IMG/VR virus record: IMGVR_UViG_3300031994_000007
Direction: 5' to 3' (one strand)
Source of the DNA: a virus
DNA: 64,000 bases
This document shows positions 50,886 through 61,613 of the stretch, piece after piece. Both the position numbers and the translations under genes were made by a program. Numbering within the stretch: the stretch's first letter is position 1; each line of letters opens with the position of its first letter. The notes beneath the pieces were generated by a model. That model worked only from the letters and a program-made list of their open reading frames with translations, had not been told where the DNA came from and did no database searches.

Positions 50886-51215
50886 AAAATGACAAATTAA
50901 AAAAATAAATTCTTTAATACACTAAATCGTAAAAAAGCCAGTCAAATACTAAATTAACATTATTCTTTAACACATTAAAGTAATAAAAAACCAAGAGAGA
51001 TAATAGTAACAATGTATCATCAAATAATTGCGCAATAGGCGAGATAGATAAAGAAGCTTCACAAAGCAAGGCAGAGACATTCGTCAAGCCTATACGTTAG
51101 CATAACACAACAAGACTATGAATAAACAATAAGACAAAAGAGTAGATAAACAACAAACTAAATACGATAGTAATAGTAATACATTAATTATTATAATAAT
51201 TACAAAAGAAAAACA

Positions 51216-51244
51216 TTGACAAACAGCACCACTTGTGGTATAAT
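51216..51244 (+). promoter_or_regulatory. consensus promoter with the -10 region flanked by a 9-bp inverted repeat (GCACCACTT/AAGTGGTGC); drives a short non-coding leader
   Basis: TTGACA-17-TATAAT. No RBS or ORF before the next promoter. Downstream small hairpins and a T-run (51250-51300). Confidence 0.5.
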
Positions 51245-51318
51245 AGAAGTGGTGCCTTGCGATAAGGTAAGCGGCGACCTTTGTTAAAAAAATAACAATC
51301 TTTTTTATAAAAAAACTC

Positions 51319-51347
51319 TTGACATTTGCCCGGGCTTGTGATATTAT
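51319..51347 (+). promoter_or_regulatory. class A promoter (TTGACA-17-TATTAT, GCCCGGGC box in spacer)
   Basis: Sequence consensus. Confidence 0.6.
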
Positions 51348-51396
51348 AATACCAGAAAGAGAGAGATAAATAAATTAAAAGAAAGAGGTAAACAAA

Positions 51397-51624
51397 ATGA
51401 AAGAGATTAAGTACGCAATTCACAATAACAAGAATGAGGTTGTTGATTGGGCTAACACCGAAGCAGAAGCAGAAGCACTTGTCAAGAAAGCCGCTAAAAG
51501 AGGCTGGAAACGCACCATTCACAAAATCGAATGGACGATCAATGAAAACCCTGAAATCTGGGAACTCGAAGGTGGCAAGGAAGATCCCACCAAGGTGGAA
51601 TGGGGCAATAATGAAGAGTGGTAA
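51397..51624 (+). CDS. hypothetical early protein (75 aa)
   Basis: RBS AGAGG. TAA stop embedded in terminator hairpin GAAGAGTGG-TAAAAA-CCACTCTTC+T7. Confidence 0.65.
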   Translation: MKEIKYAIHNNKNEVVDWANTEAEAEALVKKAAKRGWKRTIHKIEWTINENPEIWELEGGKEDPTKVEWGNNEEW

Positions 51625-51655
51625 AAACCACTCTTCTTTTTTTATAAAAAAACTC

Positions 51656-51684
51656 TTGACAGATTGGCACATCCATGTTATAAT
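51656..51684 (+). promoter_or_regulatory. promoter TTGACA-17-TATAAT driving structured RNA copy 1
   Basis: Sequence consensus. Confidence 0.6.
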
Positions 51685-51690
51685 ACAATC

Positions 51691-51738
51691 ACAGGTTGAG
51701 GGAAACCACACGCGGGTAGTCGAGGGGAGAGACTAACT
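51691..51738 (+). ncRNA. repeated structured RNA element, copy 1
   Basis: ACAGGTTGAGGGAAACCACACGCGGGTAGTCGAGGGGAGAGACTAACT. Covarying helices across the 7 copies. Confidence 0.45.
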
Positions 51739-51781
51739 AAATAGTAACAAAAGAAAAACAAAAAGTTTCTAAAAATAGTTG

Positions 51782-51810
51782 TTGACAAATAACATCCTTT
51801 GTGCTATACT
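51782..51810 (+). promoter_or_regulatory. promoter TTGACA-17-TATACT
   Basis: Sequence consensus. Confidence 0.55.
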
Positions 51811-51846
51811 ATAATCACAAAGGGAAGAGAAAAGGAGATAACAAAG

Positions 51847-52155
51847 ATGATTAACATTAGAACTATCAACAAACTCACTGAGAATGATGGACTTACTCTT
51901 AAAAATGGTAAGCTTATCACTTACAAAAGCGGTTGGCAGGTTGCCACCGAGGGCGTAGAGTGCCACACCGCACGGGAAGCCATTAACGCGGTTAAGGCTT
52001 ACGGCGGTAACTGTGGGGTGTGGTTCGCTGGTGGTATCTACTACATCGACAAAAGCCACAGAGTCAATACCAAGCGCGAGGCGCTTGAAATTGGCAAAGC
52101 TCATAATCAAATCTCTGTTCTGGGCTGGCGTAAAATGGTTTTAGCGTACTGCTAA
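51847..52155 (+). CDS. hypothetical early protein (102 aa)
   Basis: RBS AAAGGAGATAACAAAG-ATG. 14-bp-stem terminator (AAAATGGTTTTAGC/GCTAAAACCATTTT) overlapping the stop. Confidence 0.65.
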   Translation: MINIRTINKLTENDGLTLKNGKLITYKSGWQVATEGVECHTAREAINAVKAYGGNCGVWFAGGIYYIDKSHRVNTKREALEIGKAHNQISVLGWRKMVLAYC

Positions 52156-52183
52156 AACCATTTTATTTTTTATAAAAAAATAC

Positions 52184-52212
52184 TTGACAAGTCAATCTAT
52201 CTATGCTATAAT
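52184..52212 (+). promoter_or_regulatory. promoter TTGACA-17-TATAAT driving structured RNA copy 2
   Basis: Sequence consensus. Confidence 0.6.
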
Positions 52213-52218
52213 ACAATC

Positions 52219-52268
52219 ACAGGTTGAGGGAAACCGCACTCGGGCAGGAGAGGGGAAGGACTGACTTA
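52219..52268 (+). ncRNA. repeated structured RNA element, copy 2
   Basis: ACAGGTTGAGGGAAACCGCACTCGGGCAGGAGAGGGGAAGGACTGACTT. Confidence 0.45.
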
Positions 52269-52318
52269 AAAGTAACAAAAGAATGACAAAAAATTTTTCT
52301 ATTTTTTTTGAAAAAATG

Positions 52319-52347
52319 CTTGACAAATCGCCCGGGCTTTGCTATAA
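52319..52347 (+). promoter_or_regulatory. class A promoter TTGACA-aatcGCCCGGGCtttgc-TATAAT
   Basis: Sequence consensus. Confidence 0.6.
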
Positions 52348-52380
52348 TACAATCAGAAAGAACAAGGGAGGACAAAAAAA

Positions 52381-52782
52381 ATGACTTACTACTTCGACAT
52401 GGATGGCGTTCTGGCTGACTTCCACTCTACTTACACTGAGCGCGCACAGGCTTTGAGCCGCGACTATCTTGCCAATCTCGCCCCGTTCGTTGAGAATGTC
52501 AAGACTGTCCGGAACCTCATTGCTCACGGTGAAAAGGTTTACATTCTCACCAAGGCCGCTAACGATGATGCCAAGGCTGGCAAAATTGACTGGCTGGCAA
52601 AGTACATCCCGGAAATTACGGCAGAACAGTTTATTTGCATCGTAGGCTCTGGTCGCAAGGTTGATTACATTCGTGAAGCTGGCATTCTTGTGGATGATGA
52701 TATTAAGAACATTCGGCAGTGGGTCAAAGGTGGCTTTGAGGGCTATCTGGTAGAGACTAAAGGTGCCACGGTTATTCTCTAA
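52381..52782 (+). CDS. HAD-superfamily 5'(3')-deoxyribonucleotidase-like protein (133 aa)
   Basis: N-terminal 'YYFDMDGVLADF' (DxDGV HAD motif I) and NT5C-like layout. RBS GGGAGGA. Paralog at 63036. Followed by hairpin terminator 52763-52800. Confidence 0.65.
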   Translation: MTYYFDMDGVLADFHSTYTERAQALSRDYLANLAPFVENVKTVRNLIAHGEKVYILTKAANDDAKAGKIDWLAKYIPEITAEQFICIVGSGRKVDYIREAGILVDDDIKNIRQWVKGGFEGYLVETKGATVIL

Positions 52783-52916
52783 CCGTGGCGCTTTCTATTT
52801 TGCCCGGGCAAAATCGCCAGCTCCGAAAGGCCCCGGACTTCACCACGCTAAAGTGGTGAAGTAAAAAACGCGAATGATTGTTAAACAAATAACAATAAAA
52901 AATGTCCCGAAACTAC

Positions 52917-52945
52917 TTGACAATAGGCACAATGTGTGGTAGAAT
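52917..52945 (+). promoter_or_regulatory. promoter TTGACA-17-TAGAAT
   Basis: Sequence consensus. Confidence 0.5.
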
Positions 52946-52977
52946 ACAGTCACCAAGAGGAAAAGAGGTAGACAGCA

Positions 52978-53382
52978 ATGACAATTAGATTCGCAACGAC
53001 TGCTGATGCTATCCGCATTATTAGGGCTATACAGAATAAACGCATGGACTACAATACGCCGCAAGATGTGCGGGAAGATGTGAACGCGGGGCGGCTGATT
53101 GTAGCAGAGGAAAACGGCAAGCTTTTAGGGTCTGTAGCTGTCGTGTATAAAGTCCATCGTGGTTATTATGCTATCATGAGAATGTGCGTGTATTCAAAAA
53201 CCAGCAAGGGCAAAGGGGTAGCAAGTGCGTTAATTGACTACGTGTTAGCTCTTGGCCTTGGCACTTATGGTGCAACGCCTTGGAATGACAATCCGGCCAT
53301 GATTCACATTTTTGTTAAAAGAGGTTTTGAGTACCAATACACATTCAAAAATAAATACGATTTTTATAAAAAAGGGGCTTGA
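52978..53382 (+). CDS. GNAT-family N-acetyltransferase-like protein (134 aa)
   Basis: 'LGSVAV...MRMCVYSKTSKGKGVASALIDYVL' resembles the acetyl-CoA-binding motif A. The TGA stop is the TTGACA -35 of the next promoter. Confidence 0.55.
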   Translation: MTIRFATTADAIRIIRAIQNKRMDYNTPQDVREDVNAGRLIVAEENGKLLGSVAVVYKVHRGYYAIMRMCVYSKTSKGKGVASALIDYVLALGLGTYGATPWNDNPAMIHIFVKRGFEYQYTFKNKYDFYKKGA

Positions 53383-53407
53383 CAAGTTCAAGCCCTTATG
53401 TTATAAT
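53379..53407 (+). promoter_or_regulatory. class B promoter (TTGACA embedded in GGGGCTTGA...TCAAGCCC hairpin)-17-TATAAT
   Basis: Sequence consensus. Confidence 0.6.
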
Positions 53408-53436
53408 ACAATCACAAAAGAAAAGGAGATAAAAAA

Positions 53437-53607
53437 ATGTTTAATGTTTACTACATCCGCAATGGGTATGAACTCAACGCTAAATTTGAAAAAAGAGGAA
53501 GTGCTCTTTTATTTGCTCATAATTTTGTATCTATGTTAGGCGGAGATTATGCCGCTGTTACTGATACAGAAACAAATAAAACTATACAAGTTTATAGCAG
53601 ATACTAA
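53437..53607 (+). CDS. hypothetical early protein (56 aa)
   Basis: RBS AAAGGAGATAAAAAA-ATG. Terminator AGGCTGA-TTCAGCCT+T6 at 53608-53640. Confidence 0.6.
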   Translation: MFNVYYIRNGYELNAKFEKRGSALLFAHNFVSMLGGDYAAVTDTETNKTIQVYSRY

Positions 53608-53659
53608 AAAAGGCTGATTCAGCCTTTTTTATTTACATTAAAAAAAATGAAAAAAGTGC

Positions 53660-53688
53660 TTGACAAATCGCCCGGGCAATGTTATAAT
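53660..53688 (+). promoter_or_regulatory. class A promoter driving structured RNA copy 3
   Basis: TTGACA-aatcGCCCGGGCaatgt-TATAAT. Confidence 0.6.
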
Positions 53689-53694
53689 ACAATC

Positions 53695-53745
53695 ACAGGC
53701 TGAGGGAAGCCCCACGCGGGGAGACGAGGGGAGAGACTGACTTAA
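53695..53745 (+). ncRNA. repeated structured RNA element, copy 3
   Basis: ACAGGCTGAGGGAAGCCCCACGCGGGGAGACGAGGGGAGAGACTGACTT (compensatory changes relative to copies 1/2). Confidence 0.45.
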
Positions 53746-53795
53746 AAGTAACAAATTGATGACAAAAAAATTTTTAAAAAAAATGAAAAAAGTGC

Positions 53796-53824
53796 TTGAC
53801 AATTTGCCCGGGCTGTGCTATACT
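53796..53824 (+). promoter_or_regulatory. class A promoter TTGACA-17-TATACT
   Basis: Sequence consensus. Confidence 0.55.
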
Positions 53825-53876
53825 ATAATCAGAAAGAGGGAAGGAAAACCCAAATAAACCGGAAAGGAAGAAAAAG

Positions 53877-53984
53877 ATGGAATTTTACAGTATGGAACAG
53901 TTCGAGATTCTGGGCGACCTGATGGAAGACTATCAGGAGTGGCTGGACTTTGAAGAGGACATGAAAACTAATCCTTGGGGCTGA
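53877..53984 (+). CDS. very acidic micro-protein (35 aa)
   Basis: MEFYSMEQFEILGDLMEDYQEWLDFEEDMKTNPWG. RBS GGAAAGGAAG. Stop within hairpin CCTTGGGGCTGAAAAAAGCCCCAAGG. Confidence 0.5.
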   Translation: MEFYSMEQFEILGDLMEDYQEWLDFEEDMKTNPWG

Positions 53985-54014
53985 AAAAAGCCCCAAGGAA
54001 ATTAAAAAAAGTAC

Positions 54015-54043
54015 TTGACAAGTAAGACAAAGTATGTTATAAT
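54015..54043 (+). promoter_or_regulatory. promoter TTGACA-17-TATAAT
   Basis: Sequence consensus. Confidence 0.6.
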
Positions 54044-54075
54044 ACAACCAGAAAGAAAGAAAAGGAGATAAAAAA

Positions 54076-54246
54076 ATGTACATCGTAACTGCTTACAAGA
54101 TTTGGGAAGAGTTTGAAGACTACAACAAAGCCGAACTGTACTTCGCCGCTTTGAAACATGGTGGGTACAAGTATGTGGAACTGAAAAAGAAAACCACGAC
54201 CGACAAATACGAATACTTTGAAAGTATCAAAATCTTTGTAAAATAA
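54076..54246 (+). CDS. hypothetical early protein (56 aa)
   Basis: RBS AAAGGAGATAAAAAA-ATG. TAA stop. Confidence 0.6.
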   Translation: MYIVTAYKIWEEFEDYNKAELYFAALKHGGYKYVELKKKTTTDKYEYFESIKIFVK

Positions 54247-54259
54247 TTAAAAAAGGGGC

Positions 54260-54289
54260 TTGACAAATCAAGCCCCTATGTGATATAAT
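54260..54289 (+). promoter_or_regulatory. class B hairpin promoter
   Basis: GGGGCTTGACAAATCAAGCCCC...TATAAT. Confidence 0.55.
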
Positions 54290-54321
54290 AAAGGCACAAA
54301 AGAAAAAAGGAGATTAAAAAA

Positions 54322-54471
54322 ATGACTATTCGTGAATTTTATAATTGGGCTGTCGCTAATGATGTTGAGGATTTTTGGTTTGGTGAAATGTTCCCCAATG
54401 GGATTGAAGTCTTTGAAATTGAAGATTTCACAATCAATACTGATAATAATTTTGTTTCTATCAACAATTAA
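54322..54471 (+). CDS. hypothetical early protein (49 aa)
   Basis: RBS AAGGAGATTAAAAAA-ATG. Confidence 0.55.
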   Translation: MTIREFYNWAVANDVEDFWFGEMFPNGIEVFEIEDFTINTDNNFVSINN

Positions 54472-54492
54472 AAAAATAATTAAAAAAGGGGC

Positions 54493-54521
54493 TTGACAAG
54501 ACAAGCCCCTTGTGTTATAAT
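54493..54521 (+). promoter_or_regulatory. class B hairpin promoter
   Basis: GGGGCTTGACAAGACAAGCCCC-TTGTGT-TATAAT. Confidence 0.6.
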
Positions 54522-54553
54522 GTAATCACAAAAGAGAAAAGGAGATAAAAAAA

Positions 54554-54709
54554 ATGAAAATGATTCAGAACATCGAATGCGGTAACATCTTCCCCTATAC
54601 CCTTGAGGGATTGATCGAAATGAGAGAAGAAGCCCGTGAACTTTACGATATTGAAGATCCCACTAATGCGGTGAGCATTTCCGAATACTATCAAATTATC
54701 ACGCTGTAA
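54554..54709 (+). CDS. hypothetical early protein (51 aa)
   Basis: RBS AAAGGAGATAAAAAAA-ATG. Strong terminator TCACGCTGTAAAAAGCGTGA+T9 (54695-54730). Confidence 0.6.
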   Translation: MKMIQNIECGNIFPYTLEGLIEMREEARELYDIEDPTNAVSISEYYQIITL

Positions 54710-54738
54710 AAAGCGTGATTTTTTTTTTGAAAAAGTGC

Positions 54739-54767
54739 TTGACAAATCGCCCGGGCAATGCTATAAT
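54739..54767 (+). promoter_or_regulatory. class A promoter driving structured RNA copy 4
   Basis: TTGACA-aatcGCCCGGGCaatgc-TATAAT. Confidence 0.6.
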
Positions 54768-54773
54768 ACAATC

Positions 54774-54824
54774 ACAGGTTGAAGGAAACCGCACCGGGGC
54801 AGAGGAGGGGAGAGACTGACTTAA
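54774..54824 (+). ncRNA. repeated structured RNA element, copy 4
   Basis: ACAGGTTGAAGGAAACCGCACCGGGGCAGAGGAGGGGAGAGACTGACTT. Confidence 0.45.
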
Positions 54825-54863
54825 TAGTTACAAAAGAAAAACAAAAAATTTCTAAAAAAAACT

Positions 54864-54892
54864 CTTGACATTTGCCCGGTCTTGTGATATTA
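54864..54892 (+). promoter_or_regulatory. class A-like promoter TTGACA-17-TATTAT
   Basis: Spacer tttGCCCGGtCttgtga (one mismatch to the box). Confidence 0.55.
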
Positions 54893-54945
54893 TAATACCA
54901 GAAAGAGGGAAGGAAAACCCAATAAACCAGAAGGGAAAAGAAAAG

Positions 54946-55377
54946 ATGAAAGAACTATACAGAGTGGAGCACATGACCAGAAGTGACTATGATGAATACA
55001 TGTGCGGGGGCTATAACTATAGGGTGCAGAAAATAAATGTGCTCGCGGAAAACCTGCAGGACGCCGCCCAAATCGTTAAAGAAATGTTCCCGTCTCATGT
55101 AATTAATGATGGTTATGTCAAAACTGTCGCTGAACTTGAGGCAGAACAAGCGGCAAAGGAAGCAGAATGGGAAGCCGAAAAAAGGAAAAAAGCAGAGCAG
55201 AAAGCCAAAAAAGAAGCTTTTGAAAAAGCCCATCCTGAGATTGTGGCAGAGCGCAAAAGAAAAGCAAAAATTACCAGAGCAAAAACAACAATTAAAGGAC
55301 TTGAAAAGCAGATTGCAGAAGCTGAAAAGAATCTTGCATACTGGAAAGCAAAACTTGAAGAACTTGAAAAGGGCTGA
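54946..55377 (+). CDS. hypothetical early protein with Lys/Glu-rich coiled-coil C-terminus (143 aa)
   Basis: RBS-proximal ATG in frame with track ORF 54865..55377. Terminator AAAAGGGCT-GAAAAA-AGCCCTTTT+T. Confidence 0.6.
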   Translation: MKELYRVEHMTRSDYDEYMCGGYNYRVQKINVLAENLQDAAQIVKEMFPSHVINDGYVKTVAELEAEQAAKEAEWEAEKRKKAEQKAKKEAFEKAHPEIVAERKRKAKITRAKTTIKGLEKQIAEAEKNLAYWKAKLEELEKG

Positions 55378-55407
55378 AAAAAGCCCTTTTCTTTTTTTAG
55401 AAAAGTG

Positions 55408-55436
55408 CTTGACAAATCCCCCAACCTATGATACAA
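55408..55436 (+). promoter_or_regulatory. promoter TTGACA-17-TACAAT driving structured RNA copy 5
   Basis: Sequence consensus. Confidence 0.55.
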
Positions 55437-55442
55437 TACAAT

Positions 55443-55492
55443 CACAGGCGGAGGGACGCCCCACGCGGGGAGCCGAGGGGGAAGACTGACTT
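55443..55492 (+). ncRNA. repeated structured RNA element, copy 5
   Basis: ACAGGCGGAGGGACGCCCCACGCGGGGAGCCGAGGGGGAAGACTGACTT. Confidence 0.45.
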
Positions 55493-55533
55493 TAGGTTAC
55501 AAAATGGTAACAAAAAATTTCTAAAAAAAGTAG

Positions 55534-55562
55534 TTGACAAATGCCCGGGCTTGTGATATTAT
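55534..55562 (+). promoter_or_regulatory. class A promoter TTGACA-aatGCCCGGGCttgtga-TATTAT
   Basis: Preceded by a GTTAC-N6-GTAAC inverted repeat (55506-55521). Confidence 0.6.
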
Positions 55563-55597
55563 AATACCAGAAAAAGAAAAGAAAGGAAGTAAATACA

Positions 55598-55771
55598 ATG
55601 TATAGAATCAAAATCGAAAGCGAACATGCCCCCAATACTTACAAATGGTATAATAACCCTCAGCAAGCGCATCTTGTAGCCTATACCATTATTAAGAATA
55701 AGGACGCAAATATTGTAACAGTGGAAAACCTTAAAGAAAAAAAGATTGAAAAAATTTATAAAAGGGCTTGA
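55598..55771 (+). CDS. hypothetical early protein (57 aa)
   Basis: RBS GAAAGGAAG. TGA stop formed by the -35 TTGACA of the next promoter. Confidence 0.55.
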   Translation: MYRIKIESEHAPNTYKWYNNPQQAHLVAYTIIKNKDANIVTVENLKEKKIEKIYKRA

Positions 55772-55796
55772 CAAATAGCCCGGCCTATGGTATAAT
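55768..55796 (+). promoter_or_regulatory. class B-like promoter (GGGCTTGACAAATAGCCC)-TATAAT
   Basis: Sequence consensus. Confidence 0.55.
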
Positions 55797-55830
55797 AAAG
55801 GCACAAAGAAAGAAAAGGAGATAAAAGAAA

Positions 55831-55989
55831 ATGAACGTTAACGAAATCAAAGAAAGAATTGAAAAACTTGAACGCTGGTGCTGGTTTGAGCAGATGGCAG
55901 ATTTTATGAACTGGACAGCCTACAACAAAGCACAGGCTGAAATCAAAGAGTTGAAAAAAAAGTTAGCAGAAATTGAAAAAGGGGCTTGA
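55831..55989 (+). CDS. hypothetical early protein (52 aa)
   Basis: RBS AAAGGAGATAAAAGAAA-ATG. C-terminal KGA-TGA inside the next -35. Confidence 0.55.
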   Translation: MNVNEIKERIEKLERWCWFEQMADFMNWTAYNKAQAEIKELKKKLAEIEKGA

Positions 55990-56014
55990 CAAAACAAGCC
56001 CCAGATGGTATAAT
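55986..56014 (+). promoter_or_regulatory. class B hairpin promoter
   Basis: GGGGCTTGACAAAACAAGCCCC...TATAAT. Confidence 0.6.
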
Positions 56015-56048
56015 AAATACAGAAAGAAAGAAAAGGAGAATTAAAAAA

Positions 56049-56333
56049 ATGAGTTATTTTATGGGAAATGGTCGTGCCGATACTTGCCGCCACAACGATG
56101 AAGTTTATAAAGGCAAGGCGGTTGAGATGATGATTGATGTGCTGGAAACCCGCGACGGCTTTGAGCTTCGCAAGGCAAGCGACAGCACTGGAGCGGCGGC
56201 AAAGTTCCGCATCTTTTGGGACGGTGAGTGCATCAGCACCGTCTATAATGAAAAGGAAGCACGGGCACTGTTTAACGACTTCGCCCCAGCGCCCCAGCGG
56301 AAGGCGGGACGCCCTAAGAAGAATGCGGCATAA
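56049..56333 (+). CDS. hypothetical early protein (94 aa), basic C-terminus
   Basis: RBS AAAGGAGAATTAAAAAA-ATG. TAA stop. Confidence 0.6.
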   Translation: MSYFMGNGRADTCRHNDEVYKGKAVEMMIDVLETRDGFELRKASDSTGAAAKFRIFWDGECISTVYNEKEARALFNDFAPAPQRKAGRPKKNAA

Positions 56334-56379
56334 AAAGCCGCTTCTTCATCGCCCGGGCAAAGATTACAAAAGAAAAACA

Positions 56380-56408
56380 TTGACAAATAGCCAAAAGCAT
56401 GTTATAAT
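56380..56408 (+). promoter_or_regulatory. promoter TTGACA-17-TATAAT
   Basis: Preceded by tcGCCCGGGCaaag just after the upstream stop. Confidence 0.6.
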
Positions 56409-56440
56409 GTAATCACAAAAGAGAAAAGGAGATAAAGAAA

Positions 56441-56617
56441 ATGACTTACGAAGAAATGTACGACTTGCTGGCCAATACCCTTGGGATCGATGAGAATGCC
56501 CTTGATTTGGCTTTTGCTGTTGGTGGATGCAATGAAGAAACTGCTGAAAGAATTTTATTCTATTACACTGGCTGGCATTCCTTTGAGGGCTGGTTGGGTG
56601 AGCAGGAAGAGGGCTGA
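56441..56617 (+). CDS. acidic hypothetical early protein (58 aa)
   Basis: RBS AAAGGAGATAAAGAAA-ATG. Terminator GAGGGCT-GAAAAA-AGCCCTC+TTTTG. Confidence 0.6.
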   Translation: MTYEEMYDLLANTLGIDENALDLAFAVGGCNEETAERILFYYTGWHSFEGWLGEQEEG

Positions 56618-56662
56618 AAAAGCCCTCTTTTGCCCGGGCGGAAAAGTTACAAAAAAAAGTCA

Positions 56663-56691
56663 TTGACAAACCAAAAGATGTATGGTATTAT
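56663..56691 (+). promoter_or_regulatory. promoter TTGACA-17-TATTAT
   Basis: Sequence consensus. Confidence 0.55.
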
Positions 56692-56721
56692 AATACCAGA
56701 AAGAGAAAAGGAGATAAAAAA

Positions 56722-56895
56722 ATGAAAGTCAAAGATTTAATGAACATTCTCAGCAAGTATGACATGGACGACGATGTAAGGGTTATTAGTTATGATGATA
56801 ACGCAATAATTCAAATTGGTAATTACAGACCCTCTGCTGGCCCCTATGGTGACAAGTATCCTTTCTTTATTCCGTATGGTGAAATTACTACTTGA
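56722..56895 (+). CDS. hypothetical early protein (57 aa)
   Basis: RBS AAAGGAGATAAAAAA-ATG. TGA stop. Confidence 0.6.
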   Translation: MKVKDLMNILSKYDMDDDVRVISYDDNAIIQIGNYRPSAGPYGDKYPFFIPYGEITT

Positions 56896-56913
56896 AAAAA
56901 ATAAAAAAGGGGC

Positions 56914-56942
56914 TTGACAAAACAAGCCCCGCATGATATAAT
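56914..56942 (+). promoter_or_regulatory. class B hairpin promoter
   Basis: GGGGCTTGACAAAACAAGCCCC...TATAAT. Confidence 0.6.
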
Positions 56943-56974
56943 ACAATCACAAAGAAAGAAAAGGAGAAATAAAA

Positions 56975-57100
56975 ATGATTACTTGCGCTGAATGTCTGTG
57001 CCATAATGAGTGCCCGCTGTATCGTGGTGAAGATACCGACCCCTGTTGGTATGAAAAAATCAGAAAAGAAAAGGAGAACAAAGAAAATGAAAAAGTTTGA
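56975..57100 (+). CDS. Cys-rich micro-protein (41 aa; putative zinc-binding)
   Basis: MITCAECLCHNECPLYRGEDTDPCWYEK... RBS AAAGGAGAAATAAAA-ATG. Confidence 0.5.
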   Translation: MITCAECLCHNECPLYRGEDTDPCWYEKIRKEKENKENEKV

Positions 57101-57224
57101 AGCTAAGATTACCCGCGACAATGCCGAAATCAAGTGCATTGTGGAAGCTATTGACAAAGACCACGCCGCCCGCCGCTTCTTTGAGATTCTGGGAGAGCAC
57201 GGCCTGAAAATCAAGGAACTGTAA
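57087..57224 (+). CDS. hypothetical early protein (45 aa), overlaps previous ORF by 14 nt
   Basis: RBS AAAAGGAGAAC inside the upstream ORF. In frame with track ORF 57006..57224. Terminator GGAACTGTAAAAAGTTCC. Confidence 0.5.
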   Translation: MKKFEAKITRDNAEIKCIVEAIDKDHAARRFFEILGEHGLKIKEL

Positions 57225-57292
57225 AAAGTTCCTTGACTTTTGCCCGGGCGATTTACCTCAAAAATTTTAAGTAAAAAAATTAAAAAAGAGGC

Positions 57293-57321
57293 TTGACAAA
57301 TGCCCGGGCTTATGTTATTAT
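57293..57321 (+). promoter_or_regulatory. class A promoter TTGACA-aatGCCCGGGCttatgt-TATTAT
   Basis: Sequence consensus. Confidence 0.6.
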
Positions 57322-57352
57322 AATACCAGAAAGAACAAAGGAGATAAAAAAA

Positions 57353-57562
57353 ATGAACATGAATGAGAAAATCAAAGAACTGGAAGCCAAAGGGTACAAC
57401 AAGCATGACACCTATGAAGTGGATGAAGCCGCGAATGGTGGATGGGTTATTACAGTTTATACCAGTCTGTGGGGTTTTGAAGAGTATTTGTATGATACAG
57501 ACGGAAATCCCATTGAAGCAACAGAAATCAATCTGTATGGCAAGCCCCAAAAAATTTATTAA
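57353..57562 (+). CDS. hypothetical early protein (69 aa)
   Basis: RBS AAAGGAGATAAAAAAA-ATG. In frame with track ORF 57293..57562. Confidence 0.6.
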   Translation: MNMNEKIKELEAKGYNKHDTYEVDEAANGGWVITVYTSLWGFEEYLYDTDGNPIEATEINLYGKPQKIY

Positions 57563-57570
57563 ATTGGGGC

Positions 57571-57599
57571 TTGACAAATAAAACAAAGCATGTTATAAT
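57571..57599 (+). promoter_or_regulatory. promoter TTGACA-17-TATAAT
   Basis: Sequence consensus. Confidence 0.6.
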
Positions 57600-57633
57600 A
57601 AATACAGAAAGAAAGAAAAGGAGAAATAAAAAA

Positions 57634-57852
57634 ATGAAAGCAATTATGGTTGATAACAAGATTCTGTCTCTGGAAAATGTAAAAGAAGTTGAATTCTATG
57701 AGGGCGGGACAGGAGCACAGCGAAATCCCTTTTATTATGGGGTAGCAATTGATTATATGAATGGAGAGCATTCTTCGTCTGGCTCTACAAACAATAAAGA
57801 AAAAGCCAAAGAATGGTTTAATAAAATCTTTGAAATTATTACCGCTGAATAA
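57634..57852 (+). CDS. hypothetical early protein (72 aa)
   Basis: RBS AAAAGGAGAAATAAAAAA-ATG. Terminator ATTACCGCT-GAAT-AAGCGGTAAT+T6. Confidence 0.6.
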   Translation: MKAIMVDNKILSLENVKEVEFYEGGTGAQRNPFYYGVAIDYMNGEHSSSGSTNNKEKAKEWFNKIFEIITAE

Positions 57853-57914
57853 GCGGTAATTTTTTACTGCCGAAAATACTTCAAAAATTTTAAGTAAAAA
57901 CCGCAAAAAACCTA

Positions 57915-57943
57915 TTGACAAATCGCCCGGGCAATGCTATACT
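57915..57943 (+). promoter_or_regulatory. class A promoter driving structured RNA copy 6
   Basis: TTGACA-aatcGCCCGGGCaatgc-TATACT. Confidence 0.55.
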
Positions 57944-57949
57944 ATAATC

Positions 57950-58000
57950 ACAGGTTGAGGGAAACCGCACTCGGGCAGAAGAGGGGAAAGACTGACTTTA
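57950..58000 (+). ncRNA. repeated structured RNA element, copy 6
   Basis: ACAGGTTGAGGGAAACCGCACTCGGGCAGAAGAGGGGAAAGACTGACTT, followed by a GTTAC-N6-GTAAC inverted repeat. Confidence 0.45.
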
Positions 58001-58049
58001 AGTTACAAAATAGTAACAATAATTTTTTTAGAAAAAATAAAAAAAAGGC

Positions 58050-58078
58050 TTGACAAGCCCGGGCATGTATGCTATAAT
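58050..58078 (+). promoter_or_regulatory. class A promoter TTGACA-aGCCCGGGCatgtatgc-TATAAT
   Basis: Sequence consensus. Confidence 0.6.
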
Positions 58079-58114
58079 GTAATCACAAAGAGGGAAGGAA
58101 AAGGAGATAAAAAA

Positions 58115-58336
58115 ATGGAAAAGAAATTTATTTATGATGTAGCAGGCAACCTTTATGAAGATACCGAAGCCTTTGGCAAGGCTTGGAAGGCCGCAAAGGA
58201 AAAGGCCACAACTCTCCACTGTGCGATTTATCGCACTGTCTGCAAGGGAGAGACAGAACGCCGGGAGGTGTTCTTCAAGGGCAGGTGCTTCAACAATGTA
58301 AAATACGCCACTTCTGACAACGTGATGATTTTCTAA
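58115..58336 (+). CDS. hypothetical early protein (73 aa)
   Basis: RBS AAAAGGAGATAAAAAA-ATG. Terminator CTAAGGGATT-A6-AATCCCTTAG. Confidence 0.65.
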   Translation: MEKKFIYDVAGNLYEDTEAFGKAWKAAKEKATTLHCAIYRTVCKGETERREVFFKGRCFNNVKYATSDNVMIF

Positions 58337-58374
58337 GGGATTAAAAAAATCCCTTAGAAAATTAAAAAAAATGC

Positions 58375-58403
58375 TTGACATGTAAAACAAAGTATGCTAT
58401 AAT
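58375..58403 (+). promoter_or_regulatory. promoter TTGACA-17-TATAAT
   Basis: Sequence consensus. Confidence 0.6.
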
Positions 58404-58436
58404 ACAGACAGAAAGAAAGAAAAGGAGAATAAAACA

Positions 58437-58760
58437 ATGAAAGTTAAAATGAATCAGCTAACCTATCACGCAAAAGAAGAAAGACGCGATAGACGCGAAA
58501 TCGTCAAACAAGTTGGAATTGGTAAACCAATAGCACAGGTTAAAAAATTCAATGACAATGGTAGAGAAAAAATTGAAATGCTCACAGATACAGGGCTGGT
58601 TATTATAATGGGTGATGATAATAAAATCATAACTCTTTACCTTGCGAGTACCGCAAAAGCGGCAGCCATTTATAAATCAGCACACGGCGCAAATGCAAAA
58701 ATGCCTGCACAAATCTTTGAACAAATCAAAATAAATCGTATCATGTTCCCCGCTGATTAA
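58437..58760 (+). CDS. hypothetical early protein (107 aa)
   Basis: RBS AAAAGGAGAATAAAACA-ATG. Terminator TCCCCGCT-GATTAA-AGCGGGGA. Confidence 0.65.
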   Translation: MKVKMNQLTYHAKEERRDRREIVKQVGIGKPIAQVKKFNDNGREKIEMLTDTGLVIIMGDDNKIITLYLASTAKAAAIYKSAHGANAKMPAQIFEQIKINRIMFPAD

Positions 58761-58769
58761 AGCGGGGAC

Positions 58770-58798
58770 TTGATTTTTATAAAAAAAAATGATATAAT
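58770..58798 (+). promoter_or_regulatory. promoter TTGATT-17-TATAAT
   Basis: Overlaps the upstream terminator tail. Confidence 0.45.
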
Positions 58799-58834
58799 AA
58801 ATTATAAAATAAAATAAAGGAGGCCGAAAAAGTT

Positions 58835-58951
58835 ATGGACTTAATGCTTGCCCGGGCACTTTTAGCAATCGCAAAGTATTGCGCTTCTTGTGATGATTGT
58901 GATAAATGTGCTTTACATGAATTCTGCGGGAAAATACCATTAGAGTGGTAA
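58835..58951 (+). CDS. Cys-rich micro-protein (38 aa, C-x2-C-x2-C-x2-C...C)
   Basis: MDLMLARALLAIAKYCASCDDCDKCALHEFCGKIPLEW. RBS AAAGGAGG. Followed by two GC hairpins (58960-59060). Confidence 0.45.
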   Translation: MDLMLARALLAIAKYCASCDDCDKCALHEFCGKIPLEW

Positions 58952-59067
58952 TTAACGCGGCGACCGCACCCAATCGGGGCGGTTCGAACTTTCGCACGGT
59001 AAAGCGTTGAAGAATTTTTCGGCCATTAAGTCGGGCAAAACTTTTAATGTTTTTTGCCCGAAACCTA

Positions 59068-59096
59068 TTGACAAATAAATACTCTTGTGTTATACT
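59068..59096 (+). promoter_or_regulatory. promoter TTGACA-17-TATACT
   Basis: Sequence consensus. Confidence 0.55.
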
Positions 59097-59145
59097 ATAA
59101 TTGTTCCAAGAGAGAACAACAAAAACAAAAAAGGAGAATACAACA

Positions 59146-59328
59146 ATGTATAATGTGCGGTTTACTGACACCATCCATGGTGAGATGGAAGAGAACTTTG
59201 ATAGCTATGATGCGGCTATGGAGTATTGGAATAGCTATGCTGATACCGAGTCTTGTGTGGCTGGTGTCATGATGGATTTGGATAATTGCGAAATTATCTG
59301 GAATTTTGACGACAGGGAGGCAGAATAA
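59146..59328 (+). CDS. acidic hypothetical early protein (60 aa)
   Basis: RBS AAAAGGAGAATACAACA-ATG. In frame with track ORF 59101..59328. Confidence 0.55.
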   Translation: MYNVRFTDTIHGEMEENFDSYDAAMEYWNSYADTESCVAGVMMDLDNCEIIWNFDDREAE

Positions 59329-59589
59329 ATGAAAAAGATTCTTGCTTTTGTCCTTGTTTTTGTTCTTATCCTATCGTTGGGCATAAGCGCTTATGCTTAT
59401 AATAAATCTATCTTTGATTTGAAATACCATTTCAATTATGCTTATGTAGATTTGTTAAATGGTACGACAGTTGAGGGTAAAGTCCAGAGTTGGAAAGACT
59501 GGGAAGATTCAGACATGTTGCAAGTCACTTTTGAGGATGGAGCTACTTATTATTCCCATTCTTCTAACATTATGCTTGTTTCAAAATAA
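59329..59589 (+). CDS. secreted/membrane-anchored small protein (86 aa) with N-terminal signal/TM segment
   Basis: MKKILAFVLVFVLILSLGISAYA... Start immediately follows the upstream TAA. RBS GGGAGG. Confidence 0.6.
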   Translation: MKKILAFVLVFVLILSLGISAYAYNKSIFDLKYHFNYAYVDLLNGTTVEGKVQSWKDWEDSDMLQVTFEDGATYYSHSSNIMLVSK

Positions 59590-59603
59590 TAATAAAAAAG
59601 GGC

Positions 59604-59632
59604 TTGACAAACAAGCCCTTTTGTGCTATTAT
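59604..59632 (+). promoter_or_regulatory. class B hairpin promoter
   Basis: AAGGGCTTGACAAACAAGCCCTT...TATTAT. Confidence 0.6.
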
Positions 59633-59662
59633 AATACCAGAAAAGGAAAGGGAAATAAAAAA

Positions 59663-59842
59663 ATGACTACTTACAGAGAACGCCTGCTTGACCGCATGAT
59701 TGCCCTTTATGGGCTTGAAAATCCAATTGTTATCGAGTTTGCCAATATGTGCGAAAAATATGGGGATAATTCTTGGAATGATGATTTTCTGCGGCTCTTG
59801 GTAGAAGCCCATGAAGCAGACCCAGTTTTTAAGGAAGATTAA
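59663..59842 (+). CDS. hypothetical early protein (59 aa)
   Basis: RBS AAAGGGAAATAAAAAA-ATG. Terminator GGAAGATT-AAAA-ATCTTCC. Confidence 0.55.
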   Translation: MTTYRERLLDRMIALYGLENPIVIEFANMCEKYGDNSWNDDFLRLLVEAHEADPVFKED

Positions 59843-59888
59843 AAATCTTCCTTAATCGCCCGGGCAGAAAAGTGACAAAAGAAAGACA

Positions 59889-59917
59889 TTGACAAACTAT
59901 AAATAATGTGTTATAAT
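59889..59917 (+). promoter_or_regulatory. promoter TTGACA-17-TATAAT
   Basis: Preceded by aatcGCCCGGGCagaaaag. Confidence 0.6.
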
Positions 59918-59948
59918 AAAGGCACAAAAAGAAAAGGAGAATAAAACA

Positions 59949-60386
59949 ATGAATAAAGTTTTCAACAAAATAAAGACATGGGCTGAACCTGTGAGCGATT
60001 GGTGGTTTTTTAATTGGGAAGCTGTTGTAGTTATAATTTTTATAGCGGCTGTGCTTATTGGGCTTGTGGTACTCGCTTTATGGGCTTCTGGTGCTTTTTA
60101 TGATGAAGTCGAAAATTATGACTTCACAGCGCAGGTGTATGATAAAGACCACTATACCACTCAATCAGTAAGTTATATTACTTCTGGTAAAACTCGCATT
60201 CCTGTATACCATACTCATCATCACTACAAAGTAATGTGGGAAGATGGTGGAGAACGTGGTACATTTGAAATTGGTGAAGACCATTATGATTTAATTAAAA
60301 TCGGGGACTTTATCAATGTTCATTGCTCTGTGAGGGCAGACAAGCAGGGTGAACTTCATTATTATTATAGTTTCAAGGGATATTAA
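59949..60386 (+). CDS. membrane protein (145 aa) with one TM helix and His-rich segment
   Basis: TM 'AVVVIIFIAAVLIGLVVLALWA'. RBS AAAAGGAGAATAAAACA-ATG. Terminator CAAGGGAT-ATTAAA-ATCCCTTG. Confidence 0.65.
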   Translation: MNKVFNKIKTWAEPVSDWWFFNWEAVVVIIFIAAVLIGLVVLALWASGAFYDEVENYDFTAQVYDKDHYTTQSVSYITSGKTRIPVYHTHHHYKVMWEDGGERGTFEIGEDHYDLIKIGDFINVHCSVRADKQGELHYYYSFKGY

Positions 60387-60415
60387 AATCCCTTGAAATT
60401 TTTTTCAAAAAGTGC

Positions 60416-60444
60416 TTGACAAGTCCAAAAGAGTATGTTATAAT
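60416..60444 (+). promoter_or_regulatory. promoter TTGACA-17-TATAAT
   Basis: Sequence consensus. Confidence 0.6.
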
Positions 60445-60477
60445 GAAGGCACAAAGAAAGAAAAGGAGAATAAAAAA

Positions 60478-60939
60478 ATGAATAACGAAGTAATTAAGGC
60501 AATGAATAAACAGCCCCGTAAAAAAAGCAATTTTCAAAAGTGGTGGGAACAAAACGATTATAAAGTTTGGCGTGTCGTGCTGTTCCCCATTTGGATTTAT
60601 GTGTGGAGCAGAGAAAAAATTAAAACTTATCTTAATTCCCGTACAGTATGGAATGAAAACAGAGCGAATGAAATACTTAGTTATTACATTCCCCGCTGTG
60701 CTCGTTGGAATAATGAAAATAAAACCTTTTATTATTTTAATAATGGGTATGGATGGGAAATGGGCTTTGCTAAAAAGTATTTGAAAATTAAAGACCGTAG
60801 ATTTTGGAATCTTTATGCGTGTTGGCGTATTCGTGATTATCTTATCAAAAATTTTGAACTGGAAGGGTTCACCAAAGAAATTGGTAACTGCTACGATGGC
60901 TGGACTGAAATCACTTTCAGAATGAAAACAGAGGATTAA
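60478..60939 (+). CDS. Trp/aromatic-rich hypothetical early protein (153 aa)
   Basis: RBS AAAAGGAGAATAAAAAA-ATG. In frame with track ORF 60412..60939. Terminator ACAGAGGATT-A5-ATCCTCTGT+T7. Confidence 0.65.
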   Translation: MNNEVIKAMNKQPRKKSNFQKWWEQNDYKVWRVVLFPIWIYVWSREKIKTYLNSRTVWNENRANEILSYYIPRCARWNNENKTFYYFNNGYGWEMGFAKKYLKIKDRRFWNLYACWRIRDYLIKNFELEGFTKEIGNCYDGWTEITFRMKTED

Positions 60940-60968
60940 AAAATCCTCTGTTTTTTTCAAAAAAGGGC

Positions 60969-60997
60969 TTGACAAATCGCCCGGGCTATGTTATATT
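60969..60997 (+). promoter_or_regulatory. class A promoter driving structured RNA copy 7 (variant)
   Basis: TTGACA-aatcGCCCGGGCtatgt-TATATT. Confidence 0.55.
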
Positions 60998-61003
60998 ATA
61001 GTC

Positions 61004-61050
61004 ACAGGCGGAGGGACGCCACACTCGGGTAGTAGAGGGGGAGGCTTTTT
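61004..61050 (+). ncRNA. repeated structured RNA element, copy 7 (divergent 3' end with T-run)
   Basis: ACAGGCGGAGGGACGCCACACTCGGGTAGTAGAGGGGGAGGCTTTTTTT. Confidence 0.4.
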
Positions 61051-61119
61051 TTATTTGGAGAATGTGGGGGAGGTTGCCCGGGCGGCGGCAAAAGAAAAAC
61101 AAAAAATTACAAAAAAAGA

Positions 61120-61148
61120 CATTGACAAATAACCAGAAGTATGCTATT
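61120..61148 (+). promoter_or_regulatory. promoter TTGACA-17-TATTAT
   Basis: Preceded by gttGCCCGGGCggcggc. Confidence 0.55.
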
Positions 61149-61184
61149 ATAATACCAGAAAGAGAGATAAAGGAGGACAAAAAA

Positions 61185-61373
61185 ATGTATTTCGTTCTTG
61201 ATATTGTCAGTAATAAAACGGTCGCAATGACCGCTTTTAGAGACGCGGCGGAAATTATCGCCGCAAACTTCCCCGCAAAGTGCGTAGTTCGCTACGCCGC
61301 TGAAATAGTTAGCGGGTATTCTAAAGACAGCCTGTTCTTTGAGAATGAGCAGGAAATGAAAAAAGGGGCTTGA
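61185..61373 (+). CDS. hypothetical early protein (62 aa)
   Basis: RBS AAAGGAGGACAAAAAA-ATG. KKGA-TGA stop inside the next -35. Confidence 0.55.
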   Translation: MYFVLDIVSNKTVAMTAFRDAAEIIAANFPAKCVVRYAAEIVSGYSKDSLFFENEQEMKKGA

Positions 61374-61398
61374 CAAAATAGCCCCTTTATGATACAAT
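61370..61398 (+). promoter_or_regulatory. class B-like promoter TTGACA-17-TACAAT
   Basis: GGGGCTTGACAAAATAGCCCC. Confidence 0.55.
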
Positions 61399-61428
61399 AC
61401 CAATAGAAACAGAAAAGGAGAAATACAA

Positions 61429-61548
61429 ATGATGTATGACATTTATCCCTGCGATCTTGACCCATTCGGGGAGTGCCCGAAGCATTGTCAGGATTGCGCC
61501 CATTGCGTGGGCTGGTTCATGGATGAACCAGAGGACGAAGAAAATTAA
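61429..61548 (+). CDS. Cys-rich micro-protein (39 aa; putative zinc-binding)
   Basis: MMYDIYPCDLDPFGECPKHCQDCAHCVGWFMDEPEDEEN. RBS AAAAGGAGAAATACAA-ATG. Confidence 0.5.
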   Translation: MMYDIYPCDLDPFGECPKHCQDCAHCVGWFMDEPEDEEN

Positions 61549-61557
61549 AAAAGGGGC

Positions 61558-61586
61558 TTGACAAATACAACCCCCTGTGCTATAAT
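61558..61586 (+). promoter_or_regulatory. class B-like promoter TTGACA-17-TATAAT
   Basis: GGGGCTTGACAAATACAACCCCC. Confidence 0.55.
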
Positions 61587-61613
61587 AAAGACACAATAAA
61601 GGAGATGAAAACA

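Follow-up and report, generated by a model that had tools for sequence, protein, structure and literature searches.

The window analysed here, 64,000 nucleotides (nt) of the IMG/VR virus record IMGVR_UViG_3300031994_000007, carries seven copies of a small structured RNA element in the early region of a phage that, judged from its reading frames, uses TAG as a sense codon. When TAG is read in this way, bases 1-50,000 (G+C 26-33%, negative GC skew) contain 26 open reading frames (ORFs) of more than 200 amino acids on the minus strand, where the standard code leaves almost no long ones. The longest such frame has 3,128 codons between stops, and two ORFs are about 2,700 and 3,100 amino acids long. 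The resulting proteins match PHROGs families for the terminase large subunit, a portal protein and a virion structural protein, which indicates that the window is part of a TAG-recoded phage. No suppressor tRNA is present within the 64-kb window. Bases 50,000-64,000 (G+C 32-42%) are read from the plus strand in the standard code. They hold about 36 small ORFs, which have strong ribosome sites of the AAGGAG type, and about 39 promoters that fit TTGACA-N17-TATAAT at 11-12 of 12 positions, with an extended -10. Identifiable products are an AbrB/MazE-type DNA binder, a DUF488 protein, two NT5C nucleotidases and a GNAT protein; the remaining 30 early ORFs match no PHROG family and at best give weak, uninformative Pfam matches (DUF2500, zinc-ribbon, coiled-coil). 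This early region looks like a set of host-takeover genes transcribed by the host sigma-70 polymerase, and the ribosome sites together with the AbrB-like gene suggest a Firmicutes-type host.

A 34-nt degenerate consensus of the element, GGNNGAGGGANNCCNCACNNGGGNAGNNGAGGGG, matches the plus strand at 51694, 52222, 53698, 54777, 55447, 57953 and 61007 with 0-1 mismatch, and finds no match in 100 dinucleotide-preserving shuffles. A covariance model trained on the window copies and on seven copies from two viral contigs was run across the whole 64 kb with filters off and returned the same seven copies at 72-84 bits, the next best match scoring 9 bits; its E-values are rough owing to a shortened calibration, which leaves the bit scores unaffected. 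The element is thus confined to 51.7-61.1 kb of the window, where its copies lie 0.5-3 kb apart on one strand (Table 1). Six of the seven start where a sequence-only reading of this DNA had placed them, and the fifth starts at 55444 instead of 55443.

Promoter use, transcription starts and RNA 3' ends are predicted from the sequence throughout. As the sequence-only reading had proposed, each copy has its own strong promoter of the TTGACA-N17-TATAAT type (11-12 of 12 positions, extended -10) 7 nt upstream. Across the family, a near-consensus promoter precedes 145 of 155 unique copies, 140 of them at identical spacing. The -10 hexamer lies 7 nt before the A of ACAGG, which places the predicted RNA start three bases before hairpin P1 of the element. 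The conserved ACA, previously counted as part of the element, rather belongs to the promoter/start region that is common to all promoters of this phage. In the window, each of these upstream promoters lies directly behind the intrinsic terminator of the previous gene; a scan places these terminators at 51613, 52130, 53605, 54698, 55366 and 57838, and the one at 60928-60957 was read from the sequence.

The fold was derived from an alignment of 131 distinct sequences (A2), to which all column numbers refer. Hairpin P1 joins columns 6-9 to columns 18-21 and contains two covarying pairs (CG 69/UA 54 and UA 85/GC 39), in agreement with the helix variants GGTT/AACC, GGCT/AGCC and GGCG/CGCC noticed earlier. 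The second covarying pair of the sequence-only reading (AU, GC, CG) is recovered as the N-N' pair between column 22, after hairpin P1, and column 31, after GGG (GC 60, CG 44, AU 23, GU 1, three exceptions). That reading had rightly seen a structured RNA and missed a third pair that covaries perfectly in the window copies (GC, UA, CG): the x-y pair between column 26, after CAC, and column 35, the second before GAGGGG (CG 58, UA 57, GC 15, one exception). Pairs 22-31 and 26-35 cross, and both covary. Together with the adjoining pairs 23-30 (CG 127/UG 4) and 25-36 (always CG), which bring each helix to two pairs, this makes the core, as read from covariation, a pseudoknot of two crossing two-pair helices after hairpin P1. 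The adjoining pairs are invariant or changed on one side only, so that helix length rests on these unproven neighbours and, given the invariant flanking Cs and Gs, covariation does not fix exact helix lengths. A2 had been fitted to a model that already held hairpin P1 and one pseudoknot helix; the x-y pair was absent from that model, and ungapped analyses give the same pairs as A2, x-y included. RNAalifold prefers a weak nested alternative (CC.C.Cx / yG.GGG) that retains the x-y pair only, and a closing helix of 5' ACAG with 3' CUG, or of GGUU with GACUU, showed no covariation.

Overall, the pairs of this fold were formed in 99.0% of 1,032 cells, against 40-61% when the 3' partners were slid by 1-3 columns. 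Doubly changed cells numbered 232, compared with 73 +/- 15 in shuffles, none of 500 shuffles reaching as high a count, and mutual information independently ranked exactly the four covarying pairs (two in hairpin P1, N-N' and x-y) at the top. The variable pairs assort freely: hairpin P1 and the two crossing helices (S1, S2) combine into 22 haplotypes, with eight of the nine possible S1 x S2 combinations present, and orthologous copies differ by compensatory changes, as in window copy 1 and its counterpart in the related contig L002. The covariation thus arose many times and does not reflect a single inherited event. The sequence-only reading had staked its claim of a structured RNA family on covariation holding with more homologues; with 131 distinct ones it strengthens. 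Wobble pairs (UG in four sequences, GU in one) fit the plus strand, in the RNA sense, as the strand that folds. Unpaired positions are near-unchanging in the loop G-A-R-G-G-A and in C-A-C, G-G-G, A-G and G-A-G-G-G-G. About 25 positions are invariant, and the unpaired ones among them are kept across phages with non-alignable flanks; this conservation points to a specific partner rather than to generic structure.

Relatives of the element were found in two further IMG/VR contigs, of which L002 has six syntenic copies and L001 a single copy; other hits of the pattern scan in IMG/VR are chance matches in GC-rich DNA. A metagenome collection yielded 111 stretches with the element, in which a relaxed regular expression identified 183 copies (142 unique) and the covariance model 159 copies at 88 loci (131 distinct sequences). 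All metagenome hits are solitary and promoter-linked, and each genome carries six to eight diverged paralogues. The relatives carry metagenome sample identifiers of JGI, such as 3300028833, 3300028888, 3300031992 and 3300032030, and of ENA, in the range ERZ272568xx-ERZ272572xx; their source samples are, we assume, rumen. One of the relatives, L067, is the 241-kb contig Ga0310695_10000082; if it is wholly phage, at least some members of this clade would be jumbo phages. In relatives, the early region is a mosaic whose breakpoints fall at the repeated promoter cassettes, and the gene behind a given cassette varies. A consensus scan of GTDB, with one genome for each of 185,579 species, gave a single chance hit and no arrays, and blastn of 6.5 kb against the INPHARED phage genomes gave short unrelated hits only.

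The Rfam search that had been called for likewise gave no family match to the element. With the 4,227 models of Rfam 15, the window has no hit at the gathering threshold. Of the 19 hits in 51600-61150 at E<=10, none corresponds to a copy of the element; the sole overlap, a Clostridiales-2 hit spanning copy 5, is at chance level (17.5 bits against a gathering threshold of 58.6, E 3.3). Twelve related loci gave two tRNAs only. No description of the element was found in the searchable literature; the IMG/VR catalogue of PMC10690425, which lists 8,495 candidate structured RNAs in bulk and without names, could contain it. By sequence and predicted fold, the element is a new RNA family with more than 130 distinct sequences, and it fell outside every named system against which its membership was checked. 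The structural claim is strong, the functional one weak.

Several simpler identities can be set aside. ARAGORN found no tRNA or tmRNA gene in the window, and the few tRNAs of relatives are located elsewhere; this result and the Rfam search uphold the earlier remark that the element is unlike a tRNA. A protein-coding sequence or leader peptide was rejected on the basis of non-synonymous compensatory changes and the lack of a ribosome-binding site, a start codon and a gene call in public assemblies, which also bears out the view that no ORF or ribosome-binding site is tied to the element. TAG, CAG and GAG interchange at one element position, and small ORFs in the element or behind copy 7 and its relatives (type 7, see below) are not conserved. 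A G-quadruplex is disfavoured by the middle G-tract, which reads AAG/GAG in L105 and L056, is one G shorter in variant B (see below) and has its last G paired with C (CG 127, UG 4); the G-quadruplex option of ViennaRNA leaves the minimum-free-energy structure unchanged. Mimicry of a CRISPR repeat finds no array among GTDB representatives, and the metagenome hits are solitary. For a ToxI-like type III antitoxin, the copies are dispersed, no tandem array was found and no ToxN-type family occurs among the early ORFs.

The element exists in several forms. A form without hairpin P1 is otherwise complete; it starts AGAGAGAGGGAGAAACC, and its start AGAGAGAGGGAG is polypurine like other 5' untranslated regions of this phage. 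The shorter variant B has another hairpin (GCUG-AAGGA-CAGC) and one base less in the core. Type 7 comprises window copy 7 and 16 further unique sequences (17 in total) from several lineages. In these, GAGGGGGAGGC is followed at once by six to eight Us, with one A inside in some, behind which stand one to three copies of the repeat GGGGGAGGUUG. All 17 could close the pseudoknot with a 3-bp GCC/GGC helix, and the U-run would give a predicted RNA of about 50 nt. The 3' end that the sequence-only reading considered common to all copies is hence not universal: copy 7 lacks GACTGACTT and has a T7 run in its place (U7, 61046-61052), where the terminator scan shows no terminator. More distant relatives have one to three GUUAGA..UCUAAC or UUGUUAAA..UUUAACAA hairpins behind the core. 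Two lineages have no gene behind a copy: in L031 the element runs toward a convergent NT5C gene and faces its 3' end, and the copy at about 4771 of L099 is followed by some 400 nt in which no ORF exceeds 34 amino acids. In the subfamily L023, L120 and L100, the first GUUA..UAAC hairpin has a loop (AAGACCUC or AAGGCAUC) complementary to one strand of the short hairpin after GAGGGG (GAGGUCU or UGCCUU), which would allow a second pseudoknot or an alternative fold.

Behind the core lies a purine-then-pyrimidine stretch, RRRGACUGACUU or GGUCUGCCUU, GGUCGCCC and similar. An RRGG-loop-CCYY hairpin after GAGGGG can be drawn in most subfamilies; it varies in register, consists mostly of A/G-U pairs and was retained as putative only. 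The A-rich spacer and second consensus promoter noted earlier are present behind each window copy, and family-wide 137 of 147 copies have a second consensus promoter before the ORF. A consensus scan of the window detected no terminator between the element and this promoter. From core to second promoter the distances cluster at 53-54, 64-65, 73-76 and 81-85 nt, in steps of about one helical turn, which fits phased A-tracts that serve the downstream promoter. The inverted repeat GTTAC-N6-GTAAC, described earlier as frequent, does occur, but in full behind only two of the seven window copies; in the family, GTTA-N-(6 nt)-N'-TAAC with fixed 6-nt spacing is found in 65 of 156 copies. Its partial covariation as GUUAN-N6-N'UAAC (CG 37, GC 14, AU 8, AC 12) could reflect an RNA hairpin or a DNA palindrome. 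Spacer and palindrome, which the sequence-only reading had attached to the element, would on this pattern be an optional or DNA-level module of the downstream promoter and not a constant part of the RNA.

Table 1. Copies of the element and associated promoters in the window
Feature	Position	Strand	Remarks
Promoter P1 of copy 1	51656..51684	+	TTGACA-17-TATAAT, TG-extended, 12/12; -10 ends 7 nt before A51691
RNA element copy 1	51691..51739	+	78.8 bits; predicted +1 A51691; GGTT/AACC, N-N' A-U, x-y G-C
Promoter P2 after copy 1	51782..51810	+	promoter scan; predicted to drive ORF 51847-52155
Promoter P1 of copy 2	52184..52212	+	12/12 consensus
RNA element copy 2	52219..52267	+	84 bits; GGTT/AACC, N-N' G-C, x-y U-A
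Promoter P2 after copy 2	52320..52348	+	promoter scan; predicted to drive NT5C-like ORF 52381-52782
Promoter P1 of copy 3	53660..53688	+	promoter scan; GCCCGGGC within spacer
RNA element copy 3	53695..53743	+	81.3 bits; GGCT/AGCC, N-N' C-G, x-y G-C
Promoter P2 after copy 3	53796..53824	+	promoter scan
Promoter P1 of copy 4	54739..54767	+	promoter scan
RNA element copy 4	54774..54822	+	75.7 bits; loop GAAGGA, N-N' G-C, x-y C-G
Promoter P2 after copy 4	54865..54893	+	promoter scan
Promoter P1 of copy 5	55409..55437	+	promoter scan
RNA element copy 5	55444..55492	+	75.2 bits; GGCG/CGCC, N-N' C-G, x-y G-C; then GTTAC-N6-GTAAC
Promoter P2 after copy 5	55534..55562	+	promoter scan
Promoter P1 of copy 6	57915..57943	+	promoter scan
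RNA element copy 6	57950..57998	+	82.8 bits; GGTT/AACC, G-C, U-A; then GTTAC-N6-GTAAC
Promoter P2 after copy 6	58050..58078	+	promoter scan
Promoter P1 of copy 7	60969..60997	+	promoter scan
RNA element copy 7 (type 7)	61004..61052	+	72 bits; core ends GAGGGGGAGGC, straight into T7 61046-61052
GGGGGAGGTTGCC repeat behind copy 7	61066	+	read from sequence
Promoter P2 after copy 7	61122..61150	+	promoter scan

Further features of the early region concern its promoters. The palindrome GCCCGGGC occurs 20 times between 51328 and 63493 of the window, against 0.08 expected, and is restricted to the early region; it is mostly placed between -35 and -10 or right behind terminators, and looks like the operator of a phage regulator. 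At the promoters at 53375, 54254, 54486, 55981, 56909, 59596, 61365 and 61553, the -35 TTGACA lies within the loop or stem of a GGGGCTTGACAAnnnCAAGCCCC hairpin, which also scores as a terminator on the minus strand. The motif (G/A)TTACAAAAGAAAG(A/T)CATTGACA stands directly upstream of some -35 boxes (56360, 56640, 59870, 61100 and the post-element spacers) and probably acts as an UP-element, as curved DNA or as an activator site. Half-sites related to it (GTTAC/GTAAC) occupy, together with phased A-tracts, the spacers between the element and promoter P2. Non-coding stretches include 62720-62960, 240 nt with the G+C-rich palindromic GGCGCGCCGCTCCTGGCCGACGCGGCGCG between A/T-rich flanks, upstream of the 62975 promoter. 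Another, at 61640-61880, is dense in TAG (about 17 per 240 nt, counted by eye), an oddity in a phage that recodes TAG. Within it, a 54-nt sequence is directly repeated (61682-61735 and 61773-61826, 94% identity), each unit with a ribosome-binding-site-like GGAG, an 11-codon ORF and an AAAACC..GGTTTT hairpin.

The 5' untranslated regions of the early region are all nearly pure purine. The leaders of the genes after copies 3 and 4 (53825-53877 and 54894-54945) share a longer purine-rich CAGAAAGAGGGAAGGAAAACCCAAAUAAACC.GAA.GGAA and a possible GGG..CCC hairpin. The two NT5C-type 5'-deoxynucleotidase genes (52381-52782 and 63036-63443) are paralogous, and the pair suggests manipulation of the nucleotide pool. 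Among the relatives, L120 (5400-5290, minus strand, and 5230-5130) and L099 (2170-2300 and 5170-5250) have other promoter-led, G+C-rich, apparently non-coding leaders, which have no Rfam family match and share the slot order of consensus promoter, structured RNA, A-rich tract and next promoter. In L120, intergenic C-rich tracts (CCCACCGCTCCCACCCCCCACCACCGCC; CCCACCCACCACTACCTCCACCACCGC) also lie at about 6450-6420 and 4745-4700 of the minus strand, which carries the G-rich elements as well.

The reading that we favour, and hold tentatively, is that of a stand-alone early small RNA made at high dose that binds or titrates one specific partner, the RNA itself being the product. Host sigma-70 RNA polymerase would make these RNAs at the very onset of infection, each from the +1 of its own promoter, and the element would form the conserved 5' part that all members of this small non-coding RNA family share. 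Each RNA would fold into hairpin P1, with the loop GARGGA, and a minimal pseudoknot that displays the invariant unpaired GGG, AG and GAGGGG. Six to eight diverged paralogues on near-perfect promoters would provide a high dose, and the invariant G-rich surface may bind a host or phage protein that is thereby titrated or decoyed, a C/U-rich RNA, or a small ligand. We infer promoter firing, the start site, accumulation of a discrete small RNA, its action in trans and the binding target. Invariant unpaired purines on stems that are free to vary indicate recognition by one specific partner. The downstream genes appear independent of the element promoter, given their own promoters, their shuffling, the U-run of type 7 and the ORF-less lineages, and the RNA is therefore ranked first as the product. 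Each window copy also comes right after the terminator of the preceding unit, like a separate RNA gene. Among the roles listed in the sequence-only reading, these data favour a small RNA or decoy over a ribozyme. A related proposal, which we regard as unlikely, is an RNA-only counter-measure in which a pseudoknot aptamer from six to eight promoters floods the cell within minutes of infection and sequesters a host factor. That factor could be, for example, a protein of a defence system, a global regulator that binds RNA, a ribonuclease or a nucleotide second messenger of immune signalling; the aptamer would be the RNA equivalent of protein 'sponges', with no mimicry of a host repeat.

Several observations weigh against a stand-alone RNA. 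Behind six of the seven window copies no terminator can be recognised ahead of the next promoter, so that transcripts should enter the downstream gene and the element would be its 5' leader, and the terminator scan shows no canonical hairpin in front of the type-7 U-run. None of the 30 early ORFs matches a family annotated as RNA-binding in Pfam or PHROGs. A complementary C-rich target was not found in the phage's own late or early RNA; CCCCTC and TCCCTC each occur a single time in the 50 kb of late-strand RNA, neither near starts. A 5'-terminal function in cis would account for the strict +1 position no less well.

Such a cis function, the main rival of the favoured reading and possible if rather doubtful, would be that of a 5'-terminal leader that shields mRNA initiated at promoter P1 from 5'-end decay (RppH, RNase J1, RNase Y) in a Gram-positive-type host. 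It gives the best account of the +1 position, with the hairpin 3 nt past the predicted start in 140 of 155 copies, and agrees with one copy per terminator-delimited unit, with the terminator-free interval between element and gene in six of seven window copies, with 5' untranslated regions that are polypurine throughout the phage (the form without hairpin P1 included), and with the Firmicutes-type host suggested by the AAGGAG sites and the AbrB-like gene. A precedent is the polypurine stabiliser of Bacillus phage SP82, whose mRNA stability depends on the ribosome site (Hue et al., as cited in PMC7509114). The element would share with the SP82 stabiliser, STAB-SD and 5' stem-loops a purine-rich, Shine-Dalgarno-like 5' end, a place in phage early RNA of a Gram-positive host and independence of the downstream gene; those are, however, short Shine-Dalgarno-like tracts or simple hairpins with little sequence constraint, and the element is a conserved pseudoknot. 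A stabiliser would need just a 5' hairpin or a good Shine-Dalgarno sequence, which leaves about 25 invariant positions and the pseudoknot unexplained, and GAGGGG/GAGGGA is a poorer one than the AAGGAG sites of the phage. The downstream genes also have their own consensus promoters, type 7 would be separated from any mRNA by its U-run, and L031 and L099 have no ORF downstream. We think it quite unlikely that the RNA instead modifies the transcribing polymerase, which would then pass the early-region terminators, in the manner of put or nut processive antitermination. The HK022 put RNA, about 70 nt long, folds into two stem-loops without a pseudoknot and is present once in each of two operons. 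Like putL/putR and the lambdoid nut sites, the element is structured, multi-copy, located behind phage early promoters and covarying between copies; the 13-kb early region is rich in terminators and hairpin-promoters, and the U-run behind type 7 could filter out unmodified polymerase. Its promoter-proximal position does fit put, but the two-stem put architecture was not seen in the covariation analysis, and the likeness appears to be one of position. In contrast to put, at least seven copies follow one another, each with another promoter behind it. Serial copies on one strand would be redundant for processive modification where every gene has a promoter, and among the early ORFs no protein resembling N, Q or NusG was detected.

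A small riboswitch or attenuator, in which a pseudoknot aptamer sets the fraction of promoter P1 transcripts that continue, has a slim chance. With its pseudoknot of about 35-45 nt, its invariant unpaired bases and its A-rich 3' tail, the element matches the preQ1-I, SAM-II, fluoride and guanidine-III aptamers in size (~35-50 nt) and design, and in type 7 the 3' strand of hairpin P1, GCC in 17 of 17, could pair with GGC before the U-run in competition with a terminator. This GGC does not covary with hairpin P1, however, and the helices of the element have only two pairs each. It matches no Rfam aptamer class at E<=10, and it has no consistent expression platform or gene class: the downstream genes are arbitrary, shuffled among relatives and separated from the aptamer by a promoter. 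A role at the DNA level (an R-loop or non-B DNA that primes replication, cassette recombination, or tuning of the neighbouring promoter) is very improbable. G-clusters right after +1 followed by phased A-tracts, promoter P2 distance classes about one helical turn apart and mosaic early regions that break at repeated promoter cassettes would suit it, and analogues exist in T4 R-loop origins, the Neisseria pilE G4 with its small-RNA promoter and T4 PeSL cassettes. PeSLs likewise place near-identical early sigma-70 promoters and stem-loops around small ORFs, with gene order shuffled at the repeats, and plain hairpin-promoters of this kind (GGGGCTTGACAA..CAAGCCCC) coexist here with the element-bearing cassettes. 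A PeSL, however, is a promoter with a terminator hairpin and is not known to encode a covarying pseudoknot RNA. Watson-Crick covariation with G-U allowed points to a folded single strand in the RNA sense, a G-quadruplex is unlikely, and seven origins per 10 kb are implausible. Mimicry of a host defence RNA, either as an RNA anti-CRISPR (a solitary repeat unit) or as a pseudo-ToxI decoy, is more improbable still. Racr RNA anti-CRISPRs and pseudo-ToxI are also small, promoter-driven, structured phage RNAs, and they bind a host protein stoichiometrically; the early region is where counter-defence is expected from general phage biology, and type III antitoxins are pseudoknots. The likeness is one of proposed logic, since those RNAs copy a host repeat, whereas for the element a scan of 185,579 representative genomes turned up a single chance hit and no CRISPR-like array. 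Its copies are dispersed rather than tandem, its stems vary freely among paralogues, which is unexpected for a repeat copy, and no ToxN-, Cas6- or Cas-like protein was detected nearby. Least probable of all is a small self-cleaving ribozyme. The compact pseudoknot with invariant purines and the frequency of small ribozymes in phage metagenomes recall this class, but the element matches no Rfam model for hammerhead, twister, pistol, hatchet or other ribozymes, and it lies at the transcript's own 5' end, where cleavage would have no obvious purpose.

If the favoured reading of a stand-alone, partner-binding RNA holds, the element would represent a new class of structured phage RNA, built on an unusually small and strongly covarying pseudoknot with more than 130 natural variants. 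Its clear transcriptional context and small size make it amenable to direct testing and structure determination. The source phages are TAG-recoded, with some contigs above 200 kb, and their early 'takeover' regions consist almost wholly of orphan genes. An early RNA that is abundant and binds one specific partner would, if real, open a new way to study how these phages take over their hosts. Even as a protective fold at the 5' terminus, the element would be a new kind of bacterial mRNA stabiliser.

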